From positions 19,279 through 83,278 of the forward strand of contig JAEYYH010000032.1 in NCBI GenBank assembly GCA_023430885.1: 64,000 nucleotides of DNA. The letters run 5' to 3'. Shown piece by piece: positions 32,059 through 55,070 of this stretch. The number at the start of each line of letters is the position of its first letter. Position 1 is the stretch's first letter. Origin of the DNA: Bacillota bacterium (lineage in GTDB: Bacteria; Bacillota_I; Bacilli_A; RF39; UBA660). The position numbers and the translations under genes were made by a program. Below the pieces are notes generated by a model. It did not search any database. It was not told the origin of the DNA and saw nothing but the letters and a program-made list of their open reading frames with translations.

Positions 32059-32691
32059 ATGCGTATACTCAAAAAAGCAAGATTTGTTTTAGTATTAATT
32101 TCTTTTTCTGTATGTCTTGGTTTAATGAGTAGTACTTATTCAAGATATGTTGCAGGTACCACTAGTAATATTGAAGTACTATTTGCTAAATGGCAAATAC
32201 TAGTTAACAACACTGATATTACAAGTAATACAAGTTCTTCGATAACATTTGTACCCGTTATTGAAGAAAATAACTATGTTGAAGCTAATACTGTTGCACC
32301 TTCTTCAAAAGGATACTTTGATATAGCCGTTGATCCTAGTAACGTAGGAGTTTCATTTAAATATACAATTAATTTAGCAGTAGCAAATGAAAATATGCCT
32401 GACTTGATGATTACAAAATATTCAATTATTCCTTCTACTTATGTTGAAGGAGATCCACTTGAAGTTACTAACTTAACTGATAACACTATAACAAACACAT
32501 TAAATTTTGATAAAAATATTACGTCATTTAAATTCACACCTTTTACTATCAGAGTCTACTTTGAATGGTACGAAGGTACAGGTGAAACAATGACTGATGT
32601 TGAAGATACAGCTGCTGGATTATCTGCTGTTACTGATAATACAAAATTTCAAATGACCGCCAATATTAATTTCGAACAAATCTTTGAATAA
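32059..32691 (+). CDS. small secreted protein with SipW-cognate-like signal peptide (possible TasA/camelysin-like)
   Basis: 210 aa; only plus-strand gene; N-terminal h-region then STYSRYVAGTT; RBS aaaggggtctaaagtATG. Confidence 0.45.
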   Translation: MRILKKARFVLVLISFSVCLGLMSSTYSRYVAGTTSNIEVLFAKWQILVNNTDITSNTSSSITFVPVIEENNYVEANTVAPSSKGYFDIAVDPSNVGVSFKYTINLAVANENMPDLMITKYSIIPSTYVEGDPLEVTNLTDNTITNTLNFDKNITSFKFTPFTIRVYFEWYEGTGETMTDVEDTAAGLSAVTDNTKFQMTANINFEQIFE

Positions 32692-32791
32692 AATATATAT
32701 GTATTTAAGAAGTAGATTAAATTTCTACTTCTTTTTGTGAGATAAAAAAAACAACATTTCAAATGTTGTTTCAATATATAAACATATTTCA

Positions 32792-34021
32792 TTACAAGTT
32801 TGTTTTTGGTGCTATTATTACTGGTATTACATTACAACTTGTTGTTTTAGCTTCGCCATACATTTTAGAATTAATTTCATCAATTTTTTTAACTGCAAAG
32901 CCGTTATTACTATTATATTCATTACTTGTCCAATAACAGTTAGCTGAAGAGATATAATTAAATTTTTCATTTGAGAAATTATAATGACCATTTGAACTAA
33001 CTGCTTTAGCAATTTCTGTATTCATACGAGTACCATAATTTAATTTTCCTATAATTAAATCAGATATATTATCTCTAATTAAAGTTGATTCAATTACATC
33101 TTTTGAAGTTATTTTTAATAAATCTTCAACCGTTAAGGCTCTTGTCCCTACCGTCCATCCACTTGTTACGGACGACAGTGTCATAGCATAATCATTAAAA
33201 CTACTACTTAAGTAAGTATTTTTGACATTTGGTAACAAAGTAACTGTATCATCACCCAATGTGTTATTCGTATCTATTACGTATGTTGTAAGACAGGTTG
33301 TACTAATTTCTGTACACGCTTCATTATTTACAACATCATATAAAATAACGTCACCTAAATCATATTTAGGATCACTGGTTGTATTAGATTCTATGTATTG
33401 TTCAGCTTTTACACTAATTACAATTTGAATTGATGGTTTAATCTGATAATTCGCATCATTATTTTTTTTTGTTATTTCACTCTGTTCAAATTTATAGGCT
33501 TCTGTTCCCCATAAACTGTCTAGAGAATCAATACCAGAATCTAAAGGCCAAGATACGGAAACCTCAAATGAACTTTCCTCACCTTTAGCTAAAATATAAT
33601 TTTTACTTAAATTAATATTAATATGAAATGGATAATCGTGTGATAATACATCTTCAACAGATTCAGAAGTTGTTGCCGTATCATCTATTACATAATTATC
33701 GGCTTCATCGCCTAAAATTCTAGCAGAAACAATTGAATAACTAAGCTGAGCATCAGAATCACCCAAATTTTTAATGTTGACTAGTTCATCCACTATATCC
33801 ATTCCTGGATAAATATCAGATAAAGATATAACGATATCATTAGAAACCGGTTGACCATCTTTATCCAATTCTATATACCAAGCTTTAACACCTATTTCAG
33901 TAGAAACACTTGATAAACCACTATAAGCAAACCAAGCAAGTGTTACAGATATAAATGAAATTACTATAAAGGTTACAGACATTATATTTAATCTTAAATA
34001 TAATTTATGCTTTTTTTCCAA
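32792..34021 (-). CDS. secreted TasA-like protein with SipW-cognate signal peptide
   Basis: 409 aa; signal VISFISVTLAWFAYSG; segment IYPGMDIVDELVNIKNLGDSDAQLSY resembles the TasA/camelysin N-terminal PGD...N-G-S block; directly downstream of the sipW-like gene (sipW-tasA arrangement). Confidence 0.5.
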   Translation of the reverse strand: MEKKHKLYLRLNIMSVTFIVISFISVTLAWFAYSGLSSVSTEIGVKAWYIELDKDGQPVSNDIVISLSDIYPGMDIVDELVNIKNLGDSDAQLSYSIVSARILGDEADNYVIDDTATTSESVEDVLSHDYPFHININLSKNYILAKGEESSFEVSVSWPLDSGIDSLDSLWGTEAYKFEQSEITKKNNDANYQIKPSIQIVISVKAEQYIESNTTSDPKYDLGDVILYDVVNNEACTEISTTCLTTYVIDTNNTLGDDTVTLLPNVKNTYLSSSFNDYAMTLSSVTSGWTVGTRALTVEDLLKITSKDVIESTLIRDNISDLIIGKLNYGTRMNTEIAKAVSSNGHYNFSNEKFNYISSANCYWTSNEYNSNNGFAVKKIDEINSKMYGEAKTTSCNVIPVIIAPKTNL

Positions 34022-34066
34022 TTATATCACCTCGCCGTTCACTTATATTCTTTGTTTATATTATTA

Positions 34067-34651
34067 CTAATTACTACTAATTTTTTTTCTTCTCTCGTCT
34101 TCTTTTTCTAGCATCGTTGAAAGTATTTCAGATCCTATAATGAAAAGCAAAGGAAGTATTATAAATAAATAAAATCCTATAGTTGTGCCAACAATTCGAT
34201 AAATTATTGAAAGTATAATTGATCTATAAATAACAACGCCATATATCTGGCTTTCAGAAATAGTAGGATCTTCAAATAAGTTTGCTAATCCTTTTGTTTG
34301 GAATAGATATTTTCCATCTTCATCAGTTTTAATACTAACAACTTCATGGGTAATAACTTTATCTTTGAAATCACCAGCTGTTCCTAGATAACTAACTGCA
34401 TCACCAACTTTAATTGTTGATGGATCAACTTCTTTTGAAATTAACACATCTCCAATCTTATACTTGGGCTCCATACTTCCTGAAATTACTGTAAACATTC
34501 TATAATTGAAAAAAGATATTTTATTGTCACTGAAGCGTTGCAAACATACAACAATTATAAATCCAACAAGTATTACAACAAACATTATTTGTGCTATAGT
34601 TGCGACAATTTTATATGCTTTGCTGTTTTTAATTTCCATTAATTTTTTCAT
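34067..34651 (-). CDS. sipW: signal peptidase I, archaeal/ER type (SipW-like)
   Basis: 194 aa; TM1, catalytic VISGSMEPKYKIGD (Ser) and ITHEVV (His), C-terminal second TM typical of SipW. Confidence 0.75.
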   Translation of the reverse strand: MKKLMEIKNSKAYKIVATIAQIMFVVILVGFIIVVCLQRFSDNKISFFNYRMFTVISGSMEPKYKIGDVLISKEVDPSTIKVGDAVSYLGTAGDFKDKVITHEVVSIKTDEDGKYLFQTKGLANLFEDPTISESQIYGVVIYRSIILSIIYRIVGTTIGFYLFIILPLLFIIGSEILSTMLEKEDERRKKISSN

Positions 34652-34660
34652 ATAAATAAC

Positions 34661-35794
34661 CTACAAATAATTTTGAGTCCTTTCTAAATATTCGTCCATT
34701 GCAGACTGAAATTTCTTTTTAATATCAGTACTGCCAATTACTCTTTTTTCTTTTTCATTTTTTATTTCACTAGTTATCATAGCAATTATTTCTTCATCTG
34801 TTATTTTAATTCCACAATTTAGTAATAAAGAAACAGCTCTATGTATTTCTTTTTTTACCATTATAACAGCATATTTTGATAACTTGTCTTTTTGTTCTCT
34901 TTTAGATGAGCTTATTGAATCAAAGACACAATAATCTATCAAGAAAGATTCATCCAAAATTCCTTTTAGGACATCGTTTCCTGTAGTGTCTAAACCATCT
35001 TTAGAACCATCAGTATCTTCATAATCATAAGTTTGTAAGAAGTCCCATAATTTCATAGCAATTTGAAAATTAGGATTTTTTAAAATCATATTAGTTTTCT
35101 TAATTGGAGAAACTACAAATGCAACATGTGCTTTTTCTAAAGATTTTAACATTTCGCTTCTTTTCCAGCTAGCAATGTAATCTTTCATTTTTTTTACTCT
35201 TTTTTTAAGATCATCTAATTCTTTTTGAAAATCATTTTCTTTGCTTCCTTTTGGCATTTCTTTTGAACTTATTTTAAGTTCAACATTAACTTTTTCATAA
35301 CCATTATTAGTAGAAGCAGCATATTCTAAAACTTTATCATTTTTTGTTTTAAAATTTTCTAATGCTACTTCCTTTCTCATAATAAATCTTAACATATTGT
35401 CAATTAAAGTATAAATAAATCTATTTTCATATGTGTTAAATGTTTCTTCATGATGCTCGATTAATATTTTTGATGGACGAACTTCATTAGTAACTTTATC
35501 TATTTTTTCAATAAAATGAGTGTGCTTAGATAAGTCTTTTACACTTGCTACAGTAATTTTTCGAGCTTTCTCTATTTTCACTACTTCTTCTTCTTTAATA
35601 AGAGCCACTTTTGGGTTTCTAACAATATTATCAATATATGGGCAAGAAAATTCAATCTCATTTACCCAGTCGAAAGACATGGAATCATTAGTAATTTCGG
35701 ATTTAAAAGACATATCCGAACTTACATTTTGCATAAACAGTTCGCTTTTTTCTGCTAATTTTTCATCACTAGGAAATTTTTTGGCTCTAGCCAT
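34661..35794 (-). CDS. hypothetical cytoplasmic protein, partner of McrB-like NTPase
   Basis: 377 aa, KE-rich, no TM; 16 bp downstream of 35811..37340. Confidence 0.4.
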   Translation of the reverse strand: MARAKKFPSDEKLAEKSELFMQNVSSDMSFKSEITNDSMSFDWVNEIEFSCPYIDNIVRNPKVALIKEEEVVKIEKARKITVASVKDLSKHTHFIEKIDKVTNEVRPSKILIEHHEETFNTYENRFIYTLIDNMLRFIMRKEVALENFKTKNDKVLEYAASTNNGYEKVNVELKISSKEMPKGSKENDFQKELDDLKKRVKKMKDYIASWKRSEMLKSLEKAHVAFVVSPIKKTNMILKNPNFQIAMKLWDFLQTYDYEDTDGSKDGLDTTGNDVLKGILDESFLIDYCVFDSISSSKREQKDKLSKYAVIMVKKEIHRAVSLLLNCGIKITDEEIIAMITSEIKNEKEKRVIGSTDIKKKFQSAMDEYLERTQNYL

Positions 35795-35810
35795 ATATAA
35801 TCACCACTAT

Positions 35811-37340
35811 CTATACAGACTTTTTAATTCTTTCTAAGTATTCAATACATTCCTTCATATTGTCATCGCCAAATTCTTTTTTTAAATAGGCAATGAAAGG
35901 ATCTATTTCATCACGAATTAATAATATATTTAATTGATCAAACTTACGGAAAATTTTCTTAGCAATAAAGTAATCGATACCATCAACTTCTTTACCACCA
36001 CAAGCAACATAAACTGGTACAAACGTATTTAATTGTTTCATAATACGATTACCAAAAGCTACTCTGAAATGTTTGATAACATAATCATCCATTAATCTAA
36101 TTTTTTCTAAATTTTTATCAGAAACCTTTTTGTTTTCAACTGCTGCTGCAAACAAGGATTCAAGATAACTTGAATTAAGATCTATAGCATCTTGTTCTCT
36201 ACATTTAAAAGGCTCTATTTTGGTATTAATATCAATAGGCATTGCACGGTCATAAACTTTATCAGTAACCATAAATGTTGAATCATCATTATTAATTGTA
36301 CCAATATACCATAAGTTACCAGGCAATTTTAATTTTCCCTCTTTTATACGAACAGGGTCACTAGGCCATGAGTTAGTAACTAACTCAATAATCCATTCTT
36401 CCCTAGAAGGCATTTCTAGAATAGATAACATTTCAGCAAAATAATACTCAACACGAGCGATGTTCATTTCATCCAAAATGATTGTATGTACATCATCATC
36501 AAGTCCTGATATATATAATTCCGCTAATACATCAGTCTCATTAAACTTTTTTGTAAATTCATTGAAATATCCTAATAATTCAGTTTTATCACGCCAAGAA
36601 GGCTCTACTGATGCTATACAAGAATCTTTTTTTACAAACTTTCCCCAAGCATATGCAAGTGAAGTTTTACCTGTTCCTGATATACCTTGTAAAATTACTA
36701 GCTTACCGCAAGCTAAGCCTGCAAAGAACGCTCTTAAAAGTGAAGCATCATAATATAAATGTAACTGACTAGCAGAATAACATCTAAAATTATCTAACAT
36801 TTCATCTAATGTAAAATTATTACCATAATTTTTAACCTTAAGTGTCTTGAATTTTTGATCTATTTTATCAAGTTTAGGAAATCTAATGTCACCAACATTT
36901 TCCTGTTTTTTATCTTCTTCTTTAGGCTCTTCTTCTGGATTTTCTGCATCATTAGGATTTAATCCTAATTGAGAAACTTTCATAGCCATAATTTCATTTT
37001 TTTCTTTCATTAATTTCTTTACTTGGCTATCTAAATCAGCAATTTCGTCTAATAAGTCTTCTTGATTCAATTTATTTTTTCTAAATCTTATTAACTTTCT
37101 AAGACTAAATAAAATGATAAATACAATTAAACCCAATATAATAACTAGAGTGGCTATAACTGAACCAACTAGTAGCCACTCTGATCCTTTAAAACTATCT
37201 TGATAACTATTTATTATTTTCATATATTCTTTGTAGTTAATCATTTGGGTTAAGCCATTAACAAAACCTTTAATTATTAAAAGCACCCCATCAAAGAATA
37301 TTGAAATAAACTCGTAGAAAAATCTTAAAAAAGTATTCAT
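35811..37340 (-). CDS. membrane-anchored McrB-like (AAA_5 family) NTPase
   Basis: 509 aa; two N-terminal TM helices, coiled-coil/acidic linker, Walker A GISGTGKTS, Walker B IILDEMNIARVEYYF (McrB DEiNRa-like), GTINNDDSTF...DRAM sensor region. Confidence 0.6.
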   Translation of the reverse strand: MNTFLRFFYEFISIFFDGVLLIIKGFVNGLTQMINYKEYMKIINSYQDSFKGSEWLLVGSVIATLVIILGLIVFIILFSLRKLIRFRKNKLNQEDLLDEIADLDSQVKKLMKEKNEIMAMKVSQLGLNPNDAENPEEEPKEEDKKQENVGDIRFPKLDKIDQKFKTLKVKNYGNNFTLDEMLDNFRCYSASQLHLYYDASLLRAFFAGLACGKLVILQGISGTGKTSLAYAWGKFVKKDSCIASVEPSWRDKTELLGYFNEFTKKFNETDVLAELYISGLDDDVHTIILDEMNIARVEYYFAEMLSILEMPSREEWIIELVTNSWPSDPVRIKEGKLKLPGNLWYIGTINNDDSTFMVTDKVYDRAMPIDINTKIEPFKCREQDAIDLNSSYLESLFAAAVENKKVSDKNLEKIRLMDDYVIKHFRVAFGNRIMKQLNTFVPVYVACGGKEVDGIDYFIAKKIFRKFDQLNILLIRDEIDPFIAYLKKEFGDDNMKECIEYLERIKKSV

Positions 37341-39592
37341 TCTTGTTCCCCCCTGAAATCACCAATTTTGTCAACTATATCTTCATAAATAACATTATCC
37401 AAAAGTTCATCTGGAATATATGAAATCACACTTGCCATATTTGGTATTTTTTTATTAATAAATACATAATCAGCAATATATAAATCACCACGATTTTTTT
37501 CTTTAATTGTTGTTTCTTTATTAAATACTAAAGCAAATTTATAACCCATCTTTTTAATTCTCTTTAAAAATTGTTTGTTTATTAATAAGTCTTCAAATGT
37601 TGTTAAAATCAGAACATTATCTTTAGCATATTTGTCATCAATAACTCTTAATAACTTTTCAAACTTTTTCTCTTTAGCATATAAACTTTTAGGAATATAT
37701 AAAATATATTTTCTATTAAAATTAGCTGAAACCATATCTTTTATTAATTGCATTGATAATAAATTTAATAGTACTGATAACTTATCTTCAGCAACAACGC
37801 CTTCGGTATAAGTTTTATCAATAACATAATCACTATAAACTTTACTAAAAGAAATATTATGTTCAAGTTCTAATCCGTACATATCTTTCTTATTACTTAA
37901 TTTATTAAATTTTAAATTAAACATATTAGTTTCTAGTTTTTGTAAAAAATATCCAAATATATCATTATATTTTTTTTGGATCTGTCCAATTTTAGCAACT
38001 ATTTGTGCTTCTTTTTGAATATCCCAATCTTTATAAAATTTTGCTATCTCTTTTTTATAAAATTCATTTCTAACCTTAATTTCTTCTATAGAATCTTTAG
38101 CACTCTCTAAATTAGCAATTAATATAAAGATATTATTATAAGTATCCACAATTTCATTATATCTCTTGTTACTACCTTTATAATTACTAATTAGTTCGTT
38201 TGCAACTTTATTTATAACTTTTTTATTTTTTAAAACTGAACTTTTTCCTGTAGACTCGATATCTTTATCACCAAAGTAATTATAGTATTTAGCATTGATG
38301 TATGTATTAATAAATATATTTTTAACTGTTATTTCTTTAGTACGAATTTTTTCATCAACTAAGATATCTATTAACTCATTTATCTCTTCTTTTTTTATAA
38401 ACATTGATGTTTCAATAATATTTTTGTGATTACCTAGTTTACTCTTTATTGATTCTAAGTTTATTTTTGTTAGAGTTTCATTATCTTCAACTATTGGTTC
38501 TTCTTCTTTTTCAGAATTCAAATCAGCATTCTTTTTTTGTTTTTTATCTTTTTGCTCAGATACTTTCATTTCATTTCTAGCGATTTCTAGTAAAGTGTCG
38601 CCTATTTCAGATGCATCAACTGGAATAACTCTAAATAATGATGTTTTATCTAAATCGTCCTCAATATCTTCTTCTTCCTCTTTTTGTGGTGCAACTTTAT
38701 ATTTATCATCAACTTCGTTAGAATCAACTGAAATAACTCTAAAAATGGATGTTTTTTCTAATTCTTCTTCTTTATGAATTTCTTCTTCAGACTTTTGAAC
38801 TGAATGTATTAACTCATCTTCTTCTTTCTCAGAATTAGCGGATACAACTTTGAAAAGTGTATTTTCTTTTTGAGCTTCAATTTTCTTTTCTTCATATTTT
38901 TTAGCATGAGCTTTTTTATATTCTTCTAAACTTTGGATTTTACCACGATGTTTATTTATATATTTAATAACTTTTTTCCTAATATTCTTAAATAATATTC
39001 CGCCTTTTTTTACTAAAGATTCAAAGATCAAATACATATTTTCTTCTTTAATATCTTCACCTTTAGCTTTTTCTGCATCTATTTTATTCTTTTTGACTGC
39101 CATATTAAATAAGAATAAAGTAATAATAAGAGTTATCAAAACACCTGGATTAAATAATGTTTTTCTAAGAATACCAAAATTACCTAGTATTTTTACTACT
39201 TTACCTACAATTTGACTTTGATCTATTGGGTCATCTTTTGCATTATTAGCATCACCCTTAGTAATATAAGTCCCATTGTAAACTTCGATAATTCTGTGTG
39301 TTATATATTCTTTATCTAATCTATAAGTTACTATATCATCAAGTTTAACTTTTTGTGTTAGTTTTACAACTATCCAATCACCGGCATTAATTGTATCCTC
39401 CATACTTCCTGTTTGGACTTCAAATATAGAATATCCAAAAAAATCAGTATAATCATTACCAAGAAGTTTAGTTTGAACACCGGTATATATAGAGACAATT
39501 AAAATAACACCAAATATAAAAATCAATATATTTAATAAAAAATTAATAATTTTCTCAATAAAATTCATATTTTTTAAATTCATATTTATCAT
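37337..39592 (-). CDS. SipW-type signal peptidase domain fused to long cytoplasmic extension (tandem repeats and degenerate EAL-like C-terminal region)
   Basis: 751 aa; TM1, QTGSMEDTINAGDWIVVK (Ser) and ITHRIIEV (His) matching canonical SipW at 34067, TM2, then ~580 aa KE-rich region with three T(S/L)(I/L)F(R/K)V(I/V)... repeats; last ~200 aa align loosely to EAL domain blocks but lack DDFGTG. Confidence 0.55.
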   Translation of the reverse strand: MINMNLKNMNFIEKIINFLLNILIFIFGVILIVSIYTGVQTKLLGNDYTDFFGYSIFEVQTGSMEDTINAGDWIVVKLTQKVKLDDIVTYRLDKEYITHRIIEVYNGTYITKGDANNAKDDPIDQSQIVGKVVKILGNFGILRKTLFNPGVLITLIITLFLFNMAVKKNKIDAEKAKGEDIKEENMYLIFESLVKKGGILFKNIRKKVIKYINKHRGKIQSLEEYKKAHAKKYEEKKIEAQKENTLFKVVSANSEKEEDELIHSVQKSEEEIHKEEELEKTSIFRVISVDSNEVDDKYKVAPQKEEEEDIEDDLDKTSLFRVIPVDASEIGDTLLEIARNEMKVSEQKDKKQKKNADLNSEKEEEPIVEDNETLTKINLESIKSKLGNHKNIIETSMFIKKEEINELIDILVDEKIRTKEITVKNIFINTYINAKYYNYFGDKDIESTGKSSVLKNKKVINKVANELISNYKGSNKRYNEIVDTYNNIFILIANLESAKDSIEEIKVRNEFYKKEIAKFYKDWDIQKEAQIVAKIGQIQKKYNDIFGYFLQKLETNMFNLKFNKLSNKKDMYGLELEHNISFSKVYSDYVIDKTYTEGVVAEDKLSVLLNLLSMQLIKDMVSANFNRKYILYIPKSLYAKEKKFEKLLRVIDDKYAKDNVLILTTFEDLLINKQFLKRIKKMGYKFALVFNKETTIKEKNRGDLYIADYVFINKKIPNMASVISYIPDELLDNVIYEDIVDKIGDFRGEQE
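38590..38880 (-). repeat. three internal protein repeats (about 35 aa each) within the SipW-fusion gene
   Basis: TLFKVVSANSEKEEDE / TSIFRVISVDSNEVDD / TSLFRVIPVDASEIGD followed by acidic spacers. Confidence 0.5.
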
Positions 39593-39845
39593 TCCTACTC
39601 CATTTTTCGACCATATTCTATCTTATATAATTTTATCACATTAAAATACTATTTACAATAATATGAAACTTTTTTCTAATAAAAAATCAAATGCAAAAAT
39701 GAGCTTTATTTTAAAAGAAATTACTAAAAAACTATAGTTATTTTATTTTAATTAAAGTATAAACTTAAATTAATAAAGACACATAATCATTGATCATGTG
39801 TCTTTAACTTATATTATTAATTATTTTTATAAATACTGGCCTTGA

Positions 39846-40379
39846 TTATTTTATATAATCTTCTTTACCATATTTAATTTCAACAACTAGAGCATAAAAT
39901 TCATAAATAAATATTAAGAAACTTGGTACAAGAACTATAAATAAGAAACCCCATTTAGATTCTATTACAGATAAATAAGTACCTATATTGTTATAAACTT
40001 TACTAGCTTCACCTACTACAAATTTTGTTGAATATGTAGAACCATTTTCATAAGTAATTGCTTCATCAGCTTCATGAACTTCGCCTACTTTACCTAAATC
40101 AATACTTACGCTACCATCGCTAGCTACTTTATAAACAAATATTTCATCATCAACAGCGATTTCAGTTATTTTTCTTGATTCAACAAGTACTAAATCACCT
40201 TTTTTAAAATTATCCGAAGTAATATCGCCTTTTATTAAAATTAGAGAAGTGTCCCCAAATTGAGTAACTCCATAGTCATTATAATTTAATAGTAATACTG
40301 TCATTGCTATTGCAAAGCCAAAGAATACTACTCCTAAAACTCCTATAACAATTTTTTTAATGATCTCTAGTATCTTCAT
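39846..40379 (-). CDS. SipW-like membrane protein lacking catalytic Ser/His (possible inactive paralog)
   Basis: 177 aa with the same TM - beta-rich domain - TM topology and GD..V.V spacing as SipW, but SGSMEP replaced by FGDTSL and no ITH motif. Confidence 0.3.
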   Translation of the reverse strand: MKILEIIKKIVIGVLGVVFFGFAIAMTVLLLNYNDYGVTQFGDTSLILIKGDITSDNFKKGDLVLVESRKITEIAVDDEIFVYKVASDGSVSIDLGKVGEVHEADEAITYENGSTYSTKFVVGEASKVYNNIGTYLSVIESKWGFLFIVLVPSFLIFIYEFYALVVEIKYGKEDYIK

Positions 40380-40465
40380 TTTTTTACCACCTATTCTATT
40401 TATATAATAACATAAAAAGATTCTTATATCAATGATTTAATCGAAAATATGACATTAATTTTAAA

Positions 40466-41392
40466 TTAACAACCATCTGTTTCTTCAAGAGTAAATTCAC
40501 TAGCATTATACGTTGTATTAAAGCTTTTACTATAAAACATATAGCTTAAACTATCTTTCGCGTTGATATTAAACTTAATCTCATTTATGTAATTATTTGC
40601 GTCTGTATTAGCAGTACTATACTCGCTACTATCTGCATTTATTATTAATTTACTAGCGTCCCAAGTTACTTTAACGCATTTCGTAGTTGAGGAAGGATTA
40701 GTAACAATTAGTCTGTCATAATTAGAATAATTTTTATAAGATAAAGTTACATCATTACTTTTAGTACCGGCTTTATGAAGTGTAAAATCTCCACTTAAGG
40801 TTTTACTGTATGGTGTTGTGCTAGATACTGTAACATTAACTACGACATCATTAATTTCATAATTAGTATCGGTTAAAACAACATCAAAATAAAGGTTCTT
40901 TGTTACAATTTGATTAACCCAATCATACCCGTTTAGTTCACAATCTGTTTTATTAAAAGAGCTAACATCTACTTGATCACCAGTTTTATTACTACATGCT
41001 TGCAAACTAGATAAAACTCCATCCTGTGAATTTAAATCAGTACCATTCATATGGCATTCAGCATAAGCTGCTGCATCTCCTGTTACAGTACATGTGGCAG
41101 TATAACCTATATCATAATCTGTTATAACACTTTGATTAAGACTATTATTAATACTAAAGTTAATACTGCCACCATCCCACTGACTATTTGCATTCTTAAC
41201 TACAGTTCCTGAAGCTAATTGTTCACTGCTAAAGTAAAAACCTTTAGATTTCAAGTAATAATTCCAAACAGAATTTGAAATATATTTTGCAGAAGTAATG
41301 CCATAAATAACTGCTATGCTACAAACTAACAATATAGATATTAAAATTATATGTTTTTTCTTACTTTTCATAAACATCATCCTAATCTTCAA
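40466..41392 (-). CDS. secreted Ser/Thr/Asn-rich protein with signal anchor (SipW-cognate-like)
   Basis: 308 aa; h-region then GITSAKYISNS; C-terminal Cys. Confidence 0.4.
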   Translation of the reverse strand: MKIRMMFMKSKKKHIILISILLVCSIAVIYGITSAKYISNSVWNYYLKSKGFYFSSEQLASGTVVKNANSQWDGGSINFSINNSLNQSVITDYDIGYTATCTVTGDAAAYAECHMNGTDLNSQDGVLSSLQACSNKTGDQVDVSSFNKTDCELNGYDWVNQIVTKNLYFDVVLTDTNYEINDVVVNVTVSSTTPYSKTLSGDFTLHKAGTKSNDVTLSYKNYSNYDRLIVTNPSSTTKCVKVTWDASKLIINADSSEYSTANTDANNYINEIKFNINAKDSLSYMFYSKSFNTTYNASEFTLEETDGC

Positions 41393-41933
41393 GTTTTTGC
41401 CAACTTCTAATCTCTATATTAATGTAATCCACCAAATCAGAATATGATGTAGAATTATATTCATTTGGGAAATCTATTTTTAATATGTAATTATCAAGTT
41501 CTTCAGTACTATGGCCTATTTCCTCTGTTGGGGTTGTACACACTAACTCATTTGATGAGTTTCGTGTATACGTTTCATCACAAGTCATTATTAATTCCTC
41601 AGTCTCACCATTCAATTTATAAAGTTTAATTGCAAGTGGAACTAAATGATATGTTTTGACTGTCATTTGATATTCAGCAGTAATGTTACTTTTACTACCA
41701 GAAGCATTATTGCTTACAGCAAAGGTATATTCTTTACTATCCCCAGGATTTAAATCAATTAAAGGTAACTGAATTTGATTTGAACTTTCGGCATTAAATA
41801 TAAATTTTGCTATACTTTGATCACCTGAACTAAGTGAAGTATTTGAATGGAAAATAGAATATGTTATACCAAAACAGAACACTATTGATATTAATATAAA
41901 TAGAGTTATTAAAATTTTGTATTTTAATTTCAT
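41382..41933 (-). CDS. TasA/camelysin-like secreted protein
   Basis: 183 aa; signal FCFGITYSIFHS; IDLNPGDSKEYTFAVSNNASGS parallels B. subtilis TasA NLKPGDKLTKDFQFENNGS. Confidence 0.5.
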   Translation of the reverse strand: MKLKYKILITLFILISIVFCFGITYSIFHSNTSLSSGDQSIAKFIFNAESSNQIQLPLIDLNPGDSKEYTFAVSNNASGSKSNITAEYQMTVKTYHLVPLAIKLYKLNGETEELIMTCDETYTRNSSNELVCTTPTEEIGHSTEELDNYILKIDFPNEYNSTSYSDLVDYINIEIRSWQKLED

Positions 41934-41941
41934 ATCTTTAC

Positions 41942-44900
41942 CTATTTAACAATAAAATGTTTTTCTATTGTTCCTATCTTTTTAGTATCATCATATAATT
42001 CAAAAACAAATTTATACCCTGTATTTTCAAAACTAGCTGTTATCAAGTTTAATCCAAAACTGTTGTTTTCAGTTGGAGTAGCCGAAACATAATAAACATT
42101 TTGTGAAACTGCATTTAAATTATCGCTAACATAAGAAGCTAAATCAACAATTGTATAATCTTGATTATATGCTGTTAAATTATTTTTCTTATATAATGAA
42201 ACTCTTATATTTGGATTAATTAATAAACCATTTTGAGAAATATTAAACAAAACATTTACTGATTCACTTGTTTTATTTATTATACGATTTGTATCGTTCA
42301 TACTAGCGTTGAAACCATATATAGTATTCAAACTTGTTCTTGTTACATTAACTGGAATAAGTATATTTTGCGCACCTAGTTCGTCACAATATTCACCATC
42401 AATAGAAGTATAATTTGAAACTTTCAAATAATATGTTCCTTCTGGTAAATCATCATTATTGGCATATGTTGTTACTGTAAGAGTTTTAGTAACATCAGCA
42501 ATTCCATTATTTAGATTAATATGAATCATATTATCTGATTCAGGATAATATGTAGCATTTCCTATTTTAAATATAAAATTTTTCAAATGTGATTTTTCAA
42601 TAGTATTGCCATTGCTATCAACAAGCTTTATTAATAAACCAATTTGTTTATCTTCAAAAGTTGTGTCAACTATTTTAAAATCATTTATAAACTTATAATT
42701 TAAACCACTAGTTAAATTGATATTAGTAGTAGAATTACTATTAAATTCTATTGCATTTCCACTATAATCAGTAGTTAATGATAAAGTAGCCTTTGTATCA
42801 GTAGCATTTACTGTAGAGTATATATTAAATTTATTAATTGTATTATATAAAGTTGGTCTAACATTAATATCACTTGGGCTACGTAGTTCCATAGATAAAC
42901 TAACATCATTATAATTTACGGAAATGTCGGTATCAGCAAGATCCATAACAATTGTGAAATCCTCTGTAACTACACCATTATTATAATAAGTTGTTTCAGT
43001 ATAATAATTATTAACTGTTGCTGTCCCTATTTCTTTAAATAAAGTAAATGGATATGTTGCTTTTTTAATACAATTTAAATCTTCAACGCCACAACTACTA
43101 TTATAATTATAAATATCTGTAGCAGTTGTTATTTTATATTCATAAACTTTTTTTGTAGCATTATCTATTAAGGTTAGTTTTGTTCCTAATGGAAGAAGCA
43201 TATTTGCAACTAAGTTATGAGTATAGTCTGTTAAATTAGTTGCTTCTGAATTTGAATAACTAAAGTCTATCGTAATAGTTGATTTATCAGTTATATAAGG
43301 ATCTGCATTTAAATAACTTGAAGAGTTTCTTCCAATTACTAAATTTGACTCAGTATAACCATCTAAATTAATATAGTCAGTATTTATGTAAGTAACATAA
43401 TCAAAACTATCCACTATTTTTATATATACAACTTGTTTGCCAGTATTTTGTATTAATATTTCATTAGAATATGTAGTCCATTTATCATTAGATAATGCAT
43501 CTAATTCTGCAGTATTTAGTGAATCATTAGTAATGTAATATTCAATACTTGATACTCCTGAAATCGCATCTGATGCATCTACTGTAATAGTTTTTTGTCT
43601 ATCAATATATATACCATCCAAATTTGATTTTAAACTTGTCCACTTATAATCATCAAGATTAACACTAGCTTTTACACCCGGCAAATCTAAAACTAATACA
43701 TCAGTATTTAAATATGTAACATTATTATCATAATCTACAACTTTAACATATATAACATAAACACCTTCTGTTGTTATTTGTTCAATATCACTATATGAAG
43801 TCCATGCTGTTATTTGAGATATTTCTGTACTTGTAAGTGGTGTACTAGAATTGCTAATATAATAATATTTTTCTTTAACAGGGTTTAATTCATCAGCATC
43901 TTCAATACTAAAAGTAATATTAGAAGTTAATCTTAAGTTATTTAATTCATAACTTAAATTATTCCATGAATATGCACTTACATTTATATTTGCTATTGGT
44001 TTATTAATATCATCAATAAACAATATTGGTAATGAATCAGTCTCATATATCCATGCATTTTCATTATTTGTTACGATGTCTTGAAAATCCACGAATTCAT
44101 TAAAATGTAGAACACTTATATCTACACTTTTTGTTTTCAAGTTATCTAAGGTAGTTAATACAAAATCACCATTTGTTACTCCGCCTTTTATAGCAGAAAC
44201 ACCATTAACATAATATGAATTGGTTATATTAACATTTGAATTATATATAGTTCCAATACTATAATCTGAAGCTGATGTATTAAATGTATTACTTATTGAA
44301 ATAGCACCGGTATTATTAGATGCAATACCAATTAAACCACCAAAATTTGTGGAAGTTATATAACCAGTATTATAACTTTTTTCTATATTAATATCATTAA
44401 TACTTTTTTCGATAATACCTACTAAACCACCGCTTATATAAGTACTTTTAATATTACCAGTATTATAAGATTGATTTACACTAGTTGAATTATTAGTAAC
44501 CCCTACTAAACCCCCACTAATTGAATAACCATATATAGAACCTTTATTTATTGTATTTTCTATTGTTGTATTGTTAGAAATTGCAACTATACCTGCAGAA
44601 ACTGCGTATTTATAGGCAATGTTATAACTTAAATTAGAGAAAGTCAATGTATCCCCTTCAGTTGCATTAGTATATGTCAAAACAGGCACATTATTTAGTA
44701 TATTAGTACCTAAATCAATTGAAAAGTTTCCGCCTGTTACTACTTGTCCATTTATAGTAATCGTAGCATCAGCACCATTTAAACCATCAATAACATAGTT
44801 ACCAGTAATTGATGTTGAAACAATCTCTGCACCAGTTAAAGGAATATTATTTGTTAAATCTATATAATTTGTTGTCTCATAATTTTGCATGTTTATTACA

Positions 44901-45640
44901 GGAGATGCTGGAGTACTACTAATATTCTTTGAGTCTAAAGTACTTTTACCAACTACATAACCATCAAATAAAATATTACTTAATGAAGCATTATTAGTTT
45001 TAGACGCAATACCTGCTGTTATTGTCCCACCATATATCATAGCATTTTCAACATATAAATTTTTAACTTCACCTTGTAAATTAGTAAATAGAGCTAATTC
45101 TTCACTAGTTTCATTAGTCATATATAAACCATATATTCTAAATGAATTACCATTAAAAATACCCTTAAAATTATTTAGTGAATTAAATAAATTAACTGTT
45201 CCTATTTCTGTACCAGTCATATCCACATTATCATAATATTTATTAGTATAAGGATTAACATAATATGTATGTCCGTCTAAAATATAGTTTATTTTATTAT
45301 TTTCATCATAATTAAATACGCCATTATTTATTACAATGTCGTTACTTAAAGTAAAATATGTATTATCGTAATCATTAGTTGCAAGCTGAGAATAAAAATA
45401 TGCTAACTCTGAACCTGAAGAGATTAAATATGGGTCACTAGATGAACCAGTACCACTTTTATAACTGCTAGCTACACTTCCATCCCATACAGGATTAGTT
45501 ATTAAAGTATTTCTATTTTTATATCTTGCTAAAGTTGGTATACCTACGGATAATATTAAAGCAAATATTAATATTAAAACCAAATAAGTAATTTTTTGAG
45601 TTTTTGATAATTTATTAATAAAATCTATTATTACTTTCAT
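41942..45640 (-). CDS. giant secreted surface protein with GLUG-motif repeats
   Basis: 1232 aa; signal anchor; repeated SGGLVG / FGGLIG blocks (GLUG motif), Asn/Thr/Tyr-rich beta-rich body; first gene of a four-gene operon. Confidence 0.55.
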   Translation of the reverse strand: MKVIIDFINKLSKTQKITYLVLILIFALILSVGIPTLARYKNRNTLITNPVWDGSVASSYKSGTGSSSDPYLISSGSELAYFYSQLATNDYDNTYFTLSNDIVINNGVFNYDENNKINYILDGHTYYVNPYTNKYYDNVDMTGTEIGTVNLFNSLNNFKGIFNGNSFRIYGLYMTNETSEELALFTNLQGEVKNLYVENAMIYGGTITAGIASKTNNASLSNILFDGYVVGKSTLDSKNISSTPASPVINMQNYETTNYIDLTNNIPLTGAEIVSTSITGNYVIDGLNGADATITINGQVVTGGNFSIDLGTNILNNVPVLTYTNATEGDTLTFSNLSYNIAYKYAVSAGIVAISNNTTIENTINKGSIYGYSISGGLVGVTNNSTSVNQSYNTGNIKSTYISGGLVGIIEKSINDINIEKSYNTGYITSTNFGGLIGIASNNTGAISISNTFNTSASDYSIGTIYNSNVNITNSYYVNGVSAIKGGVTNGDFVLTTLDNLKTKSVDISVLHFNEFVDFQDIVTNNENAWIYETDSLPILFIDDINKPIANINVSAYSWNNLSYELNNLRLTSNITFSIEDADELNPVKEKYYYISNSSTPLTSTEISQITAWTSYSDIEQITTEGVYVIYVKVVDYDNNVTYLNTDVLVLDLPGVKASVNLDDYKWTSLKSNLDGIYIDRQKTITVDASDAISGVSSIEYYITNDSLNTAELDALSNDKWTTYSNEILIQNTGKQVVYIKIVDSFDYVTYINTDYINLDGYTESNLVIGRNSSSYLNADPYITDKSTITIDFSYSNSEATNLTDYTHNLVANMLLPLGTKLTLIDNATKKVYEYKITTATDIYNYNSSCGVEDLNCIKKATYPFTLFKEIGTATVNNYYTETTYYNNGVVTEDFTIVMDLADTDISVNYNDVSLSMELRSPSDINVRPTLYNTINKFNIYSTVNATDTKATLSLTTDYSGNAIEFNSNSTTNINLTSGLNYKFINDFKIVDTTFEDKQIGLLIKLVDSNGNTIEKSHLKNFIFKIGNATYYPESDNMIHINLNNGIADVTKTLTVTTYANNDDLPEGTYYLKVSNYTSIDGEYCDELGAQNILIPVNVTRTSLNTIYGFNASMNDTNRIINKTSESVNVLFNISQNGLLINPNIRVSLYKKNNLTAYNQDYTIVDLASYVSDNLNAVSQNVYYVSATPTENNSFGLNLITASFENTGYKFVFELYDDTKKIGTIEKHFIVK

Positions 45641-45764
45641 AATTACCCTTCCTTCATAAAAAAATTATAGGACTTAGTATACTTTATATAAATTATTATA
45701 TCATAATATGACATATTTTGCACCACAAATATAACTTGCAATATATACAAAAAGAAACTCCTTT

Positions 45765-47432
45765 TTAAGAAGTTTCTTGCTCTTTTTTCTTTTCATTTAC
45801 ATTGATTTTTTCAACCTGAGCCATGAACCAGATCTTTTCAACTGTCGTTGAACTTTTCTCAATTTCATTTACTCTTAATAAGAATAAAATCTTATTTAAT
45901 AGTGTCTCTAATTCATCTGGATTTAAATTTTCTTCATTAAGATTAATATTATCCAGTCTATATTTATTCATGATAATTCTTGTAATATTTGTCTCTTCGA
46001 ATACTGCAACACCATTAATTATTATATTAGTTGGATTCATTGCAAATAAATCAAATTCATCACTATACTTTGCTACTTCTTCATGAACTGTAGTATTAAA
46101 TGCAGTTTGTATTGCCTTTTTTTTAAAGTAATCAAAACTATAATATAAGTGTAACAAATCAGATACAGTTAAAGAATCATTTAGTACTTCCATAACTTTT
46201 TCTTTAAAATATTCTTGAGCATAAATTTTATATAAATCATATAATTCCTTGGCAATTTTTATTGAATCAATTTTTAGTTTCTTTACAGCAGCACCTTTTG
46301 AAAAATCAAATAATAGTGGTTCACCACCAAATATTTTTTTATTCATTTTTTCAAGTTGTGATTCTTTTAAAGAAATTTTTGCTAGAGTTTCTTTTAGTGT
46401 TTTATTAGGATTATTTTTATCATTACTTCCTTTAGTAGAAGAAGATTCAACTTTTGTAATTTCCTTTTCATACTCTTTCCTAAAATTTTCAATTAATGGA
46501 GTGAATTTTATATAATTATTATATTCTTCAACATTGTTTTTTAATTTTCTTAGGGTATCATAAAACTTATCCATAAATGCTTTATCTGATATATTTGAAG
46601 AGTTAATCATTAATGAGTTGTACGCACCTATTCTTGTCTTGCTATCTTCAAAATAACTATTCATATCAATAGCTCCTGATTTAGCTAATTTTATAATATC
46701 TGCTACACTTTCACTATCTACTTCATTTAATTGATTATAAGCAATTTTAAGTTTATCTAAGCAATCTTGATAGCTAGTAATACTATTTTCAACCATTACT
46801 TTCTTTTGCAATTTATTAATATAATCTGTGAATTTTTTCTCATACTTATTAATTAATTTCAGAAAATTTAGTTCTATATGCTGAATTATTTCAGGATTGA
46901 CCCAATAAATTTTTTCAAATACTTCTGATAACTTATCACAACTACATTCTTTTGCATTTTTATTTTCCAAAAAGCATGTCATATATTCATGAACATAACA
47001 TGTATAATCAAAATCGCTACTTGTAAGTTTAATATCTGCTGATTCAAATTTTATTAAGAACTGATTAATTACTTCATTTAAAGAATCAAAATTAAAGTTA
47101 TAATAATTGCTTATTTCATAGATTAAATTATCAAAGCCAAGTTTTTCATTAACTGTATTTGTTGGATTTAGGATAAATCTAACATGCTCGAGTTCAGTTA
47201 CATTTCTATTTAGTTTTTCTAAACTTTTATCACTGTCTTTTACATTAAAACTTTTGCTCTTTGTATCAATATATTTTTTGACAGCAGCTTTATAATCAAC
47301 ATATTTTTCTGTAATTGAATCTATTTTTTCATTGAATTTCTTAATGTCTCTTTTTGTATTAGTTGGCATTGTAGAAATTAAGGTTGTTTTCATTTCGATA
47401 TCTTCGTCAATAAACTTCAAAAAATTAATCAT
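45765..47432 (-). CDS. hypothetical cytoplasmic protein
   Basis: 555 aa, no TM, KE-rich helical. Confidence 0.4.
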   Translation of the reverse strand: MINFLKFIDEDIEMKTTLISTMPTNTKRDIKKFNEKIDSITEKYVDYKAAVKKYIDTKSKSFNVKDSDKSLEKLNRNVTELEHVRFILNPTNTVNEKLGFDNLIYEISNYYNFNFDSLNEVINQFLIKFESADIKLTSSDFDYTCYVHEYMTCFLENKNAKECSCDKLSEVFEKIYWVNPEIIQHIELNFLKLINKYEKKFTDYINKLQKKVMVENSITSYQDCLDKLKIAYNQLNEVDSESVADIIKLAKSGAIDMNSYFEDSKTRIGAYNSLMINSSNISDKAFMDKFYDTLRKLKNNVEEYNNYIKFTPLIENFRKEYEKEITKVESSSTKGSNDKNNPNKTLKETLAKISLKESQLEKMNKKIFGGEPLLFDFSKGAAVKKLKIDSIKIAKELYDLYKIYAQEYFKEKVMEVLNDSLTVSDLLHLYYSFDYFKKKAIQTAFNTTVHEEVAKYSDEFDLFAMNPTNIIINGVAVFEETNITRIIMNKYRLDNINLNEENLNPDELETLLNKILFLLRVNEIEKSSTTVEKIWFMAQVEKINVNEKKKEQETS

Positions 47433-47577: not shown

Positions 47578-47597
47578 TAAAATCACCCTTTTTTTTC

Positions 47598-48776
47598 TTA
47601 ATTATAACCCGATAAATCTTTTATGAAATTAATTGCAATAGTAATAGCAGCACCTTTTGAATATGTTTCTAAGCTATCTATATCTTGTCCTTCAATCCAA
47701 ACATAAGCTCTTACTTTTGTTATACCACTTGGAATTTGAAAGATTGGATTTGTAAATGTAGTAGTTGTCTTTTGCAAGGCAAAATGCTCTGTATCAAGTG
47801 GTATACCTGTACCTTCTTGTCCATTTGAATGTTGAAGATTTCTTCCTTCATTTATAATGGCATATGTTGGATTGTATGTACCATCCACCAAAGTAATATC
47901 GCTTTCTTTAGCTGTCTTAATAGATCCTTCAGAATGCGCTGTACTATTAGGTTCATAAATAACCATTTCGCAATTATTATTGCATACAATATTTTGAATA
48001 TTGTTAACACTTGATTTTAAAGGAACACTTCCTACTTTTATAAGACCTATTCTCATAGAATTCATTATTCCACTCATAGAATCAATAATATCTTCTTTTG
48101 TTGCTTCATCTGTGTCAGCATATTTATTATAATCAAAATCAATAGCAGTATCATCATCAAAATACAGATTATCGCTTAGTGGTGAACCACTAACATTTTT
48201 TAAAAAGATATCAAATGCAATGTAAACATTAGCAGCTGATGAGTTATTTTGATCAACTAATGTCGTATTTAATAATCGTTCACCTGGAACAATCTTTTTC
48301 TTATTTTTAACTATTTCTCCTACATAGACATCAAATTTATCACTATTAGAATTTGGAATTCCAATAGTTGAAACAGGCCATAAACCGGCTGAAGCCCACT
48401 GATTAGTGTTGGTTGGATATTTATTCTCTAAGTCTTTAATTACACTATCTAGAGATATCTCAACTGAATCCGAAAAGTCAATACCGTCAAGTGAAATAAA
48501 TAATCCACTGTTACTAGATACGGACATATCAAGAAATTTAACTTTAACATTTAAGGATGCAGATAACCAAGCGTATGAAGAAACTATTAACAAAATACCA
48601 GTAAAGAAAATAATAAATATTAATAATCTAGGATCTATTTTCTTTATTCTTATTCTTTGACCTTTTAGTATTTTTCTAACACTTTTCTTCTTTCCTTTAT
48701 TATTAATCTTTTTCTTGTTTTTAGAATTACTATTTTTCTTTACTTTTAAATTTTCTTTCGTATTTTGTACGGTCAT
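47598..48776 (-). CDS. secreted TasA-like paralog 1 (SipW-cognate signal SSYAWLSA)
   Basis: Start taken at second Met (GAGGTG RBS); very basic n-region, h-region, SYAWLSASLNVKVKF; divergent homolog of the three downstream paralogs, lacks the DUF5011 tail. Confidence 0.5.
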   Translation of the reverse strand: MTVQNTKENLKVKKNSNSKNKKKINNKGKKKSVRKILKGQRIRIKKIDPRLLIFIIFFTGILLIVSSYAWLSASLNVKVKFLDMSVSSNSGLFISLDGIDFSDSVEISLDSVIKDLENKYPTNTNQWASAGLWPVSTIGIPNSNSDKFDVYVGEIVKNKKKIVPGERLLNTTLVDQNNSSAANVYIAFDIFLKNVSGSPLSDNLYFDDDTAIDFDYNKYADTDEATKEDIIDSMSGIMNSMRIGLIKVGSVPLKSSVNNIQNIVCNNNCEMVIYEPNSTAHSEGSIKTAKESDITLVDGTYNPTYAIINEGRNLQHSNGQEGTGIPLDTEHFALQKTTTTFTNPIFQIPSGITKVRAYVWIEGQDIDSLETYSKGAAITIAINFIKDLSGYN

Positions 48777-48802
48777 AAAGCACCTCATTCAAAATATAAA
48801 TA

Positions 48803-48828
48803 AAGAGTAACCAGCTTTGATTACTCTT
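48803..48828 (-). terminator. terminator hairpin after paralog 2, only 27 bp before start of paralog 1
   Basis: aagagtaa-N10-ttactctt, T-rich after on minus strand. Confidence 0.5.
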
Positions 48829-48905
48829 AATTATCTTAATAATAACTAATTACTAACATAACCACTAGTCAGTATTATTTAAATATTAAATTTTATCAAT
48901 CATTA

Positions 48906-50366: not shown

Positions 50367-50385
50367 AAATACATCTCTCTCTCTA

Positions 50386-51078: not shown

Positions 51079-51149
51079 TTCCTACCCATGTCCTTTATGT
51101 GTAACTTCACAGAATATTCATATGCATATATAGATACCCTACTATAATA

Positions 51150-51186: not shown

Positions 51187-51220
51187 ACATTTTTTTCACT
51201 ACAAGTATTATTTAATTTAC

Positions 51221-51255
51221 ATAAAAATAAAAGAGTAATCACACCGATTACTCTT
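51221..51255 (-). terminator. rho-independent terminator after paralog 3
   Basis: aaagagtaatc-acacc-gattactcttt then T-tract on minus strand. Confidence 0.6.
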
Positions 51256-51291
51256 TAATATTTTAACAATAATTAATTATTAATATAATAA

Positions 51292-54646: not shown

Positions 54647-55070
54647 AAATACATCTCTCTTCCTATTTTCGACTATTTTTACCATAAACATTTTATATAT
54701 GTTTATGGATCTTGCTTCTAACTATAAGACATGTTGTAGTTTAATTCTATTACCTATTTTAAGTTCTTCTAAATACTTTTGTATGACAGGTTTAATCAGT
54801 TCAAAAGAAATTATATCTTTTTCAAGAATCAATTATTAGAGGATTTGAAATAAGTAACTTAATTACGGCCTTCGTGAATTCTTTTTTCTTACAGTTTATT
54901 GACTATTTTTTAATATCACCAATAATTTTCGCAATTATTATTGATTGTAATAAAAAATTGTCACTATTATAAACAATACAAACGACAATAATATAGTCTC
55001 GTTATTCACGTTTTGCATGGTGACTTTTTATGTCACCAATCATAATATCTTTATCGTAGTATACATTCAC

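Follow-up and report, generated by a model that had tools for sequence, protein, structure and literature searches.

What is built by a bacterial locus that places three homologs of the signal peptidase SipW among exported proteins with similar signal peptides? Such a locus lies in a 64,000-nt window, the whole stretch of DNA analyzed here, from contig JAEYYH010000032.1 of a Bacillota bacterium, and all cluster coordinates are given on the numbering of this window. A preliminary description of the window had placed an uncharacterised SipW-dependent fibre or matrix assembly locus at 32059-45640. The open reading frames (ORFs) and N-terminal strings quoted in it were all found at the positions given there. 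However, its interval covers only about 60% of the cluster, which spans 32059-54691 and comprises 16 genes; the three or four best-conserved 'TYAWF' proteins are encoded beyond that interval. These genes are read most economically as having a dedicated role in fibre or matrix assembly, and this part of the earlier proposal stands. What had been overlooked is an embedded pair, a McrB-type guanosine triphosphatase (GTPase; p509) and a McrC N-terminal-domain protein (p377), which links the locus to a system already named, CoCoPALM. We estimate a probability of about 0.6 that the cluster encodes a SipW-dependent, donor-strand-type fibre or pilus assembly machine under GTPase control. Gene content, homologies, conserved residues, a motif and synteny were observed, and from these we infer all functional steps. 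Proteins are designated by their length in amino acids (aa), so that p183 is the 183-aa protein.

The three peptidase homologs were analyzed with TIGR02228, the NCBIfam model of archaeal/endoplasmic reticulum (ER)-type signal peptidase I, the type to which SipW belongs. Both p194 (74.5 bits) and p751 (71.8 bits) exceeded the cutoff of 51.85 bits. With the SipW equivalog model of Bacillus, NF046067, they scored 62.8 and 58.6 bits, both below its cutoff of 190 bits. By these scores, p194 and p751 are SipW-type enzymes and not SipW orthologs. No match to any peptidase hidden Markov model (HMM) was detected for p177, and its relationship was established by profile alignment: 162 columns of the p177 ortholog profile aligned with the 194-aa peptidase family (hhalign probability 96.6%, E 6e-10). 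The count of three SipW-type homologs in the preliminary description is confirmed by these results.

In p194, S59, H102 and D128 are invariant among 41 sequences, whereas the Asp of the GDNN motif is replaced by Leu or Ile in this enzyme, which had been called canonical. In p751, S63, H99, D114 and D120 are invariant (28 sequences). The p751 family profile matched human SEC11C and SEC11A (7p2q, 7p2p) over the catalytic core, including the Ser, His and Asp positions. On the basis of the alignment, we take D128 of p194 and D120 of p751 to correspond to the triad Asp of SEC11A. Both p194 and p751 are predicted to be active enzymes. The third homolog, p177, had been said to lack the catalytic Ser and His. 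Its Ser position is occupied by Asp, Lys, Glu, Asn or Gly and never by Ser in 65 sequences (Asp in the window copy), so the loss of Ser is general. However, the His position is mixed (Tyr, His, Asn or Phe, with 36 Tyr and 18 His among the 65), and the window copy has His, so that the earlier statement is accurate for Ser and only approximate for His. By a Kyte-Doolittle scan, the peptidase domain is flanked by an N-terminal and a C-terminal transmembrane (TM) segment in each of p194, p751 and p177. Since p177 is a full-length homolog with the two-TM layout and the catalytic Ser has been lost in every ortholog examined, it is classified as a conserved, predicted pseudo-peptidase.

The fusion described for p751 is correct: a peptidase of residues 1-165 is followed by a domain of about 585 aa. 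Profile searches of PDB and Pfam gave no detectable homolog of this extension. It is probably cytoplasmic, because basic residues come after the second TM segment. An EAL-like reading of the p751 C-terminus was considered and dropped, since the motif order is unfit and HMM support was absent. In the acidic linker of p751 (residues about 245-335), a short motif occurs in three copies, NTLFKVVSANSE, KTSIFRVISVDSNE and KTSLFRVIPVDASE, and K316, T317 and R321 are nearly invariant among the orthologs. This linker motif may be a docking peptide.

The exported proteins next to the peptidases share a short sequence at the end of the signal peptide. The pattern [ST][YLSW][AS]x[FYL], which was written after the data had been seen, occurs directly behind a hydrophobic segment in nine of the 16 cluster proteins and in none of the 34 other window proteins. 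The strings are TYAWF (three times), SYAWL, TLAWF, TYSIF, TSAKY, TYSRY and TLARY, with predicted cleavage (↓) at TYA↓WF, TLA↓WF, TYS↓IF, TSA↓KY, TYS↓RY, TLA↓RY and SYA↓WL. The claim that the peptidases are neighboured by exported proteins with TasA-like cleavage motifs is in agreement with this distribution. In the individual families, the motif varies little or not at all, in contrast to the hydrophobic region of the signal peptide. When the signal region was removed and the mature domains were compared by profiles, the families were mostly unrelated. Since the motif is nevertheless common to them, selection acts on the N-terminus itself.

The site at which TasA is cleaved, T25-W26-A27↓A28-F29, fits the pattern of the cluster. 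Small residues at -3 and -1 would fit recognition by the peptidases, and the aromatic residue at +2 would fit a donor strand. SipW cleaves both TasA and TapA, and the TasA donor strand that links the subunits consists of residues 28-38, including F29 (PMC9674648).

The N-domain of p495 defines an unnamed family of 821 clusters at 50% identity. Among its full-length representatives, 91 in number, the sequence (T/A/V)YAWF was seen in 82 and persists to an identity of about 30%. The one clear exception without the motif is a stand-alone gene (locus L085, 10001-11218, P0453/P0512), which lies between rpiB and hpf/secA and encodes a protein with a plain membrane anchor; no peptidase gene is nearby. 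It is a single case in which the YAWF motif and the peptidase have been lost together.

These 'TYAWF' proteins could instead form an envelope or S-layer-like surface layer, anchored or released after processing, with the peptidase paralogs sharing a heavy substrate load. The p495 paralogs have strong promoter-like sites, terminators of their own and C-terminal immunoglobulin (Ig)-like domains, as in abundant wall proteins, and their large N-domain has no TasA-like signature. S-layer domains (SlpX, Sap) are among the weak structural matches to the p495 model, but these are made through the Ig domain only, and domain scans of the cluster proteins found no SLH, CWB2 or LPXTG wall-anchoring domain. 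Recognition by the peptidases would hardly suffice to explain why the +2 aromatic residue is conserved across seven families with unrelated mature parts. This residue fits the donor-strand residue of TasA, a family that has a putative member in the cluster. Moreover, a surface layer leaves the GTPase and the pseudo-peptidase unexplained. We consider this alternative unlikely.

The relationship to TasA was analyzed for each exported family. Peptidase_M73 (PF12389) was matched by 18 of the 41 p183 orthologs at E<=1 (best E 2.5e-5), and one ortholog is named 'TasA family protein' by NCBI. The predicted model of p183 is a jelly-roll beta-sandwich, in which residues 30-50, right after the signal peptide, are of low confidence or disordered. 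We regard the p183 family as distant relatives of TasA and camelysin. The N-terminal 90 or so residues of p308 are homologous to p183 (95.6%), and none of the 30 p308 orthologs matched Peptidase_M73. A TasA/camelysin block had been assigned to p183 and p409. The PG..N.G block is present in both at the sequence level, whereas homology was detected only for the p183 family: no match to Peptidase_M73 was found among 31 p409 orthologs, and the mature domain of p409, including the block, aligned with the p183 family at a probability of 23% in the profile comparison. By family models, the peptidases are as the preliminary description expected, one substrate (p183) is so in part, and the remaining substrates are not.

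The predicted model of p495 is confident, with a predicted local distance difference test (pLDDT) value of 85, and neighbours in PDB were found for its Ig domain only. No match of p1232 to Pfam Glug was detected at E<=0.1. However, p1232 is similar to the Pfam-confirmed GLUG pilin of the window (BLASTP E 1e-10), so its earlier designation as a GLUG protein is borne out by similarity and not by the Pfam model. The C-terminal part of p230 and the last part of the p495 domain are weakly similar (W-[LI]-EG-x-D). Profile searches of PDB and Pfam with p555 gave nothing meaningful; since p555 has no TM segment, it is probably cytoplasmic. TapA was not detected in Pfam and NCBIfam scans of the window proteins. 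Invariant cysteines are present in the exported proteins: four each in p495 and p409, two in p183 and six invariant or nearly invariant ones in p308. Their presence in an extracellular structure suggests disulfides or metal sites; the organism is presumably anaerobic.

The McrB-type AAA+ domain of p509 is preceded by a TM segment at residues 60-78, which is followed by basic residues and then by a heptad-like region at about 85-125. The Walker A sequence GISGTGKTS, Walker B and N350-N351-D352-D353 are invariant among orthologs. The family profile matched E. coli McrB (6hz4, E 1.3e-5, residues 197-404). The homologs listed for p509 were relatives with at least 69% identity, and the closest annotated relatives were pairs of an AAA ATPase and a DUF2357 protein on plasmids. 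The protein is 38% identical to a plasmid CoCoNuT-like GTPase with N-H-D-E, whose gene precedes a DUF2357 gene; N-N-D-D of p509 aligns without gaps to this N-H-D-E, whereas the HMM alignment to NTAD of E. coli would also permit an NxxD reading. No match of p509 to a DivIC or FtsB HMM was found. The gene of p377, which matches PF09823 (DUF2357) with 44.5 bits, above the cutoff of 23.3, and E 1.5e-11, adjoins the GTPase gene in 42 loci. The C-terminal half of p377 contains no invariant acidic or Lys residues and gave no match, to a nuclease or otherwise, in Pfam, PDB or PADLOC. Furthermore, Pfam and NCBIfam scans detected no HEPN or other nuclease gene adjacent to p509 and p377.

The p509 and p377 genes might be a McrBC-like (CoCoNuT-type) anti-phage module that merely neighbours unrelated secretion genes. 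The plasmid relatives mentioned above and the match of p509 to the PADLOC defence candidate PDC-M26A (E 8e-33) agree with such a module. However, more than 40 species-level genomes have the two genes in the same place, flanked by those of the two active peptidases, p509 is translationally coupled to p751, and the pair stays with SipW-type genes in rearranged distant variants. In type IV restriction by McrBC, McrC contributes a PD-(D/E)xK nuclease, and the N-domain of McrB binds nucleic acid. Neither feature was found here: p509 has a membrane anchor in place of the DNA- or RNA-binding domain, and p377 has no recognisable nuclease. A defence module is, in our judgment, very improbable.

In the report of Bell et al. 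(2024, eLife, PMC11090510), CoCoPALM, 'pilus assembly linked to McrBC', is named in two sentences and its description is deferred. Its GTPases are of the NxD McrB clade and are fused to an FtsB-like TM and coiled-coil region. The signature is NxD, not NxxD, usually followed by D or E, and a McrC homolog and signal-peptidase-family genes are associated (PMC11090510). By its predicted proteins, our cluster matches CoCoPALM. No follow-up on CoCoPALM was found in a literature search.

To see how far the gene order extends, we used 75 loci from species-representative genomes, fetched with the p183 family as probe, and assigned their ORFs to the window proteins by BLASTP. The order is kept in up to 75 species-level genomes and runs [p495-like, p230]-p396-p555-p1232-p183-p308-p177-p751-p509-p377-p194-p409-p210 (opposite strand), with one to four copies of p495-type paralogs depending on the species. 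Among the 75 loci, p1232 is present in 75, p183 and p308 in 74, p177 in 65, and p751, p509, p377, p194 and p409 in 45 to 40; these counts are limited only by contig ends. Thus, the cluster is conserved clade-wide. In seven loci (L014, L017, L019, L024, L052, L056 and L069), the p555 gene lies upstream of the p495-type genes and not between p396 and p1232, and in L043 p1232 is preceded by a p194-like gene. Apart from such small changes, the order is fixed. Two more distant loci are compact and also rearranged, and 'TYAWF' proteins are kept in them. The first, L082, carries a p751-like C-terminal domain, a GTPase, DUF2357 and three SipW-type genes together with p210-, p555-, p409-, p230- and p495-like genes. 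The second, L086, which was partly sampled, carries a p555-like fragment, two SipW-type genes, two p409-like genes, one p230-like gene and one p495-like gene. Since both retain most parts of the cluster despite the rearrangement, a functional module is indicated.

The locus had been called an island. The window is low in guanine plus cytosine (G+C; 22-32% per 2-kb window) without a compositional break between the cluster and its flanks. Because the composition equals that of the flanks and the gene order is clade-wide, a horizontally acquired island was rejected.

The cluster is likely transcribed as single p495-type genes, a p1232-p183-p308-p177 unit and a p751-p509-p377-p194-p409 unit. The stop codon of p751 overlaps the start of p509 (ATGA), p377 and p194 follow downstream of p509 with gaps of 16 and 9 bp, and operon gaps are 9-45 bp overall. 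Terminator-like hairpins follow p177, p555, p495 and p510 (Table 1); in 45600-55400, nine were detected against 2.3 expected. Those after p177 and upstream of p1232 fit the four-gene unit that had been proposed earlier. The hairpins of p510 and p495 have a nearly identical stem (AAGAGTAATC...GATTACTCTT). The duplication that made these paralogs therefore took in the terminator. In sigma-70 promoter scans, the counts equalled the shuffled expectation in this AT-rich DNA, except for two extended -10 promoter-like sites with 11/12 matches, 5' of p507 and p495. Alignment of the upstream regions of the paralogs revealed no common leader.

The host is an uncultured low-G+C member of the Bacilli and is probably spore-forming. 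The structure might be made in sporulation, as a spore appendage, a crust or a coat-associated fibre, and not on vegetative cells. Read from translations, the window contains sporulation-type genes (spoVA-like, 12171-13947; sigma-F-like, 16855-17511), distant variants of the cluster lie near SpoVG, SipL, YunB or DpaA genes, and TasA was first described as spore-associated (PMC9674648). However, the genes flanking the cluster differ between lineages, and neither a promoter nor a regulator of sporulation was identified within the cluster. Its best promoter-like sites are of the sigma-70 type, although these scans are near random expectation in AT-rich DNA. We regard a sporulation-specific structure as quite improbable.

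Based on these results, we propose the following scheme for a GTPase-controlled fibre or pilus. Structural proteins of at least seven families (ten genes here) would be exported by Sec and held in the membrane by their signal peptides, which end in T-[Y/L]-[A/S]↓x-[F/Y]. The two predicted active peptidases, p194 and p751, would cut after the small residue, as at T-W-A↓A-F of TasA. The new N-terminus, with its +2 aromatic residue, would then enter the neighbouring subunit as a donor strand, like F29 of TasA. Most of the structure would consist of p495-family paralogs, with p1232 as a large GLUG-type tip or adhesin and p183 and p308 as TasA-like adaptor subunits. The pseudo-peptidase p177 may bind the signal or cleavage region without cutting and may act as an anchor, nucleator or chaperone. 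Membrane-tethered p509 and nuclease-less p377 may control or power processing and assembly from the cytoplasmic side, probably by way of the p751 extension of about 585 residues on that side and perhaps by way of p555.

Several points weigh against this scheme. Cleavage, polymerisation and the filament are all deduced from genes. The p183 family is the only one with sequence homology to TasA; p183 of the window itself did not match Peptidase_M73 at E<=0.1, and its family profile matched no PDB sequence even at E<=10. For the domain of about 400 aa in p495, the presumed major subunit, no structural neighbour was found in PDB. The ten N-terminal fragments of the exported proteins had been expected to carry a SipW-cognate signature; none matched a SipW-cognate model in NCBIfam even at E<=10, a result that is qualified by the unconfirmed presence of TIGR04088 in the release and by the HMMER filters, which drop weak matches to short models. 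The closest relatives of the p509 GTPase belong to predicted defence systems. Finally, TasA-type assembly, which in Bacillus requires neither a chaperone nor energy, is not known to involve a nucleoside triphosphatase (NTPase).

A more specific version of the scheme is possible and is offered tentatively. A hexamer of the McrB-like GTPase with a McrC-N plug might act through the cytoplasmic domain of the peptidase to gate or power subunit release and donor-strand polymerisation, with the dead peptidase as subunit receptor or fibre base. If true, this would be a new class of Gram-positive pilus machine, functionally analogous to PilB/PilC/PilD of type IV pili and made from entirely different parts. 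It would also be the first non-defence job of the McrBC module.

Table 1. Genes and terminator-like hairpins of the cluster, in window coordinates
Feature	Coordinates	Strand	Description
p507	53168..54691	-	'STYAWF' signal; N-terminal domain of about 400 aa of an unnamed family and C-terminal Bact_surface_Ig-like domain; paralog 1; likely start MPKLKK
p495	51292..52779	-	'STYAWF' signal; paralog 2; candidate major subunit; strong promoter-like site 5', terminator-like hairpin 3'
Hairpin after p495	51230..51256	-	Terminator-like
p230	50386..51078	-	Membrane anchor at N-terminus; motif absent
p510	48906..50438	-	'STYAWF' signal; paralog 3; likely start 50363
Hairpin after p510	48803..48828	-	Terminator-like
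p396	47598..48788	-	Homolog of the p495 N-domain without Ig domain; 'SSYAWL' signal; long basic N-region
p555	45765..47432	-	Conserved; no TM segment; no known domain
Hairpin at p555 end	45752..45778	-	Terminator-like; upstream of p1232
p1232	41942..45640	-	Giant exported protein; 'IPTLARY' signal; GLUG-like beta-helix at about residues 154-477; heads four-gene unit; candidate tip or adhesin
p183	41382..41933	-	Putative distant TasA/camelysin-family jelly-roll protein; 'GITYSIF' signal
p308	40466..41392	-	Cys-rich exported protein; 'GITSAKY' signal; likely start 41371
p177	39846..40379	-	SipW-type paralog, predicted catalytically dead (pseudo-peptidase); TM at N- and C-termini
Hairpin after p177	39774..39806	-	Terminator-like; 15-bp stem
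p751	37337..39592	-	Active-type archaeal/ER-type signal peptidase I (residues 1-165) and domain of about 585 aa after second TM
p509	35811..37340	-	TM, putative coiled-coil and McrB-type AAA+ GTPase; start overlaps p751 stop
p377	34661..35794	-	McrC N-terminal-domain (DUF2357) protein; no recognisable nuclease
p194	34067..34651	-	Stand-alone archaeal/ER-type signal peptidase I
p409	32792..34021	-	Exported; 'VTLAWF' signal; PGM..N.GD block
p210	32059..32691	+	Exported; 'STYSRY' signal; convergent with p409; conserved in 31 loci

A matching locus was also found in metagenome assemblies and in the metagenome-assembled genome GCA_023427715.1, and the database labels of the relatives are uncultured Bacilli, 'Mollicutes' or Erysipelotrichia. 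Two small ORFs immediately upstream of the cluster (55263-56365, minus strand) have translations that resemble an IS3-type transposase pair. In two loci from otherwise identical strains (L002 and L003, 3915-4859), an rve-family transposase gene lies between p177 and p751, in the intergenic region with the terminator of p177 and presumably also the promoter of p751. The window was scanned with Rfam and for tRNAs in search of riboswitches, such as those for cyclic di-GMP, and none was detected. The products of two adjoining ORFs at 9506-12118 (minus strand) carry tandem repeats rich in proline, with units of PVEEPIG.PEPVQ and of VAPTVAPV, and behind these a membrane segment; they have no relation to the cluster.

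Three type IV pilin genes with the prepilin N-methylation motif lie at 4289-4669, 4807-6324 and 19444-21153 (minus strand). One of the three pilins (505 aa) carries GLUG repeats like those of p1232. A functional link between the pilins and the cluster is conceivable, because C. perfringens needs a type IV pilin to secrete a protein of its SipW operon (PMC11580942).

The carriers of the cluster are uncultured Bacilli, many of them from animal and human gut samples. Since the cluster is present in up to 75 species-level genomes and the presumed major subunit family comprises about 800 clusters, its product is probably a major surface structure of this abundant uncultured group, with relevance to adhesion, biofilm and host interaction. 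A TasA-like logic of cleavage and donor strands appears to be joined here to a GTPase, two predicted active peptidases and a pseudo-peptidase. To our knowledge, the p509-type GTPase family is otherwise known only from restriction and defence, and the cluster would be a concrete and testable example of a McrBC module that has been taken over for a function other than defence.

For their assembly outside the cell, TasA-type fibres are not known to need energy or dedicated machinery beyond SipW and TapA. With the tapA-sipW-tasA operon of B. subtilis, the cluster shares an ER/archaeal-type signal peptidase beside its substrates, the T-aromatic-A↓x-F cleavage region, a TasA/camelysin-family jelly-roll (putatively p183) and a new N-terminus as the likely donor strand. 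In contrast to this operon, it has three peptidase paralogs and not one, and ten candidate substrate genes of at least seven families, most of them without homology to TasA. Furthermore, it includes cytoplasmic components together with a GTPase and McrC-N, and no NTPase is required for the assembly of TasA. In the bsa operon of C. perfringens (sipW-bsaA-bsaB-bsaC; PMC11580942), an anaerobic Firmicute, several TasA-family paralogs are combined with SipW; the operon resembles the cluster in this respect, and type IV pilin genes are likewise present in the window. However, no vWA protein was found in our cluster, and the bsa operon is without the McrB/McrC pair and the pseudo-peptidase. Kivimaki et al. 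(2025, PMC11580942) reported that operons with multiple TasA paralogs and signal peptidases are widespread and suggest heteropolymers.

Among archaeal TasA-superfamily filaments, AbpA bundling pili (7ueg) and CanX of cannulae (9h8b) scored no better than many unrelated jelly-rolls, and they differ from the cluster in having no sequence similarity and another gene context. The eukaryotic signal peptidase complex shares the theme of an active peptidase, since the p751 domain aligns with SEC11A/SEC11C, accompanied by non-catalytic partners. However, the partner here, p177, is a degenerate peptidase paralog by prediction, and homologs of the other subunits of that complex are not present, so that the likeness is conceptual only.

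Multi-paralog SipW/TasA systems are already known (PMC11580942), and the link between McrBC and signal peptidases has been named (PMC11090510). The detailed anatomy, the pseudo-peptidase, the motif common to unrelated families and the large unnamed subunit family are new with respect to the searchable literature. The closest known system is CoCoPALM, with which the cluster shares a NxD-clade McrB-type GTPase, here behind an N-terminal TM and putative coiled-coil segment, a DUF2357 partner and signal-peptidase-family genes. To the published text on CoCoPALM, our analysis adds three peptidase paralogs (one predicted to be dead and one with a large, probably cytoplasmic fusion), a cleavage-site motif, the p495, p409, p308, p210, p555 and p230 families, and the giant GLUG-like protein.

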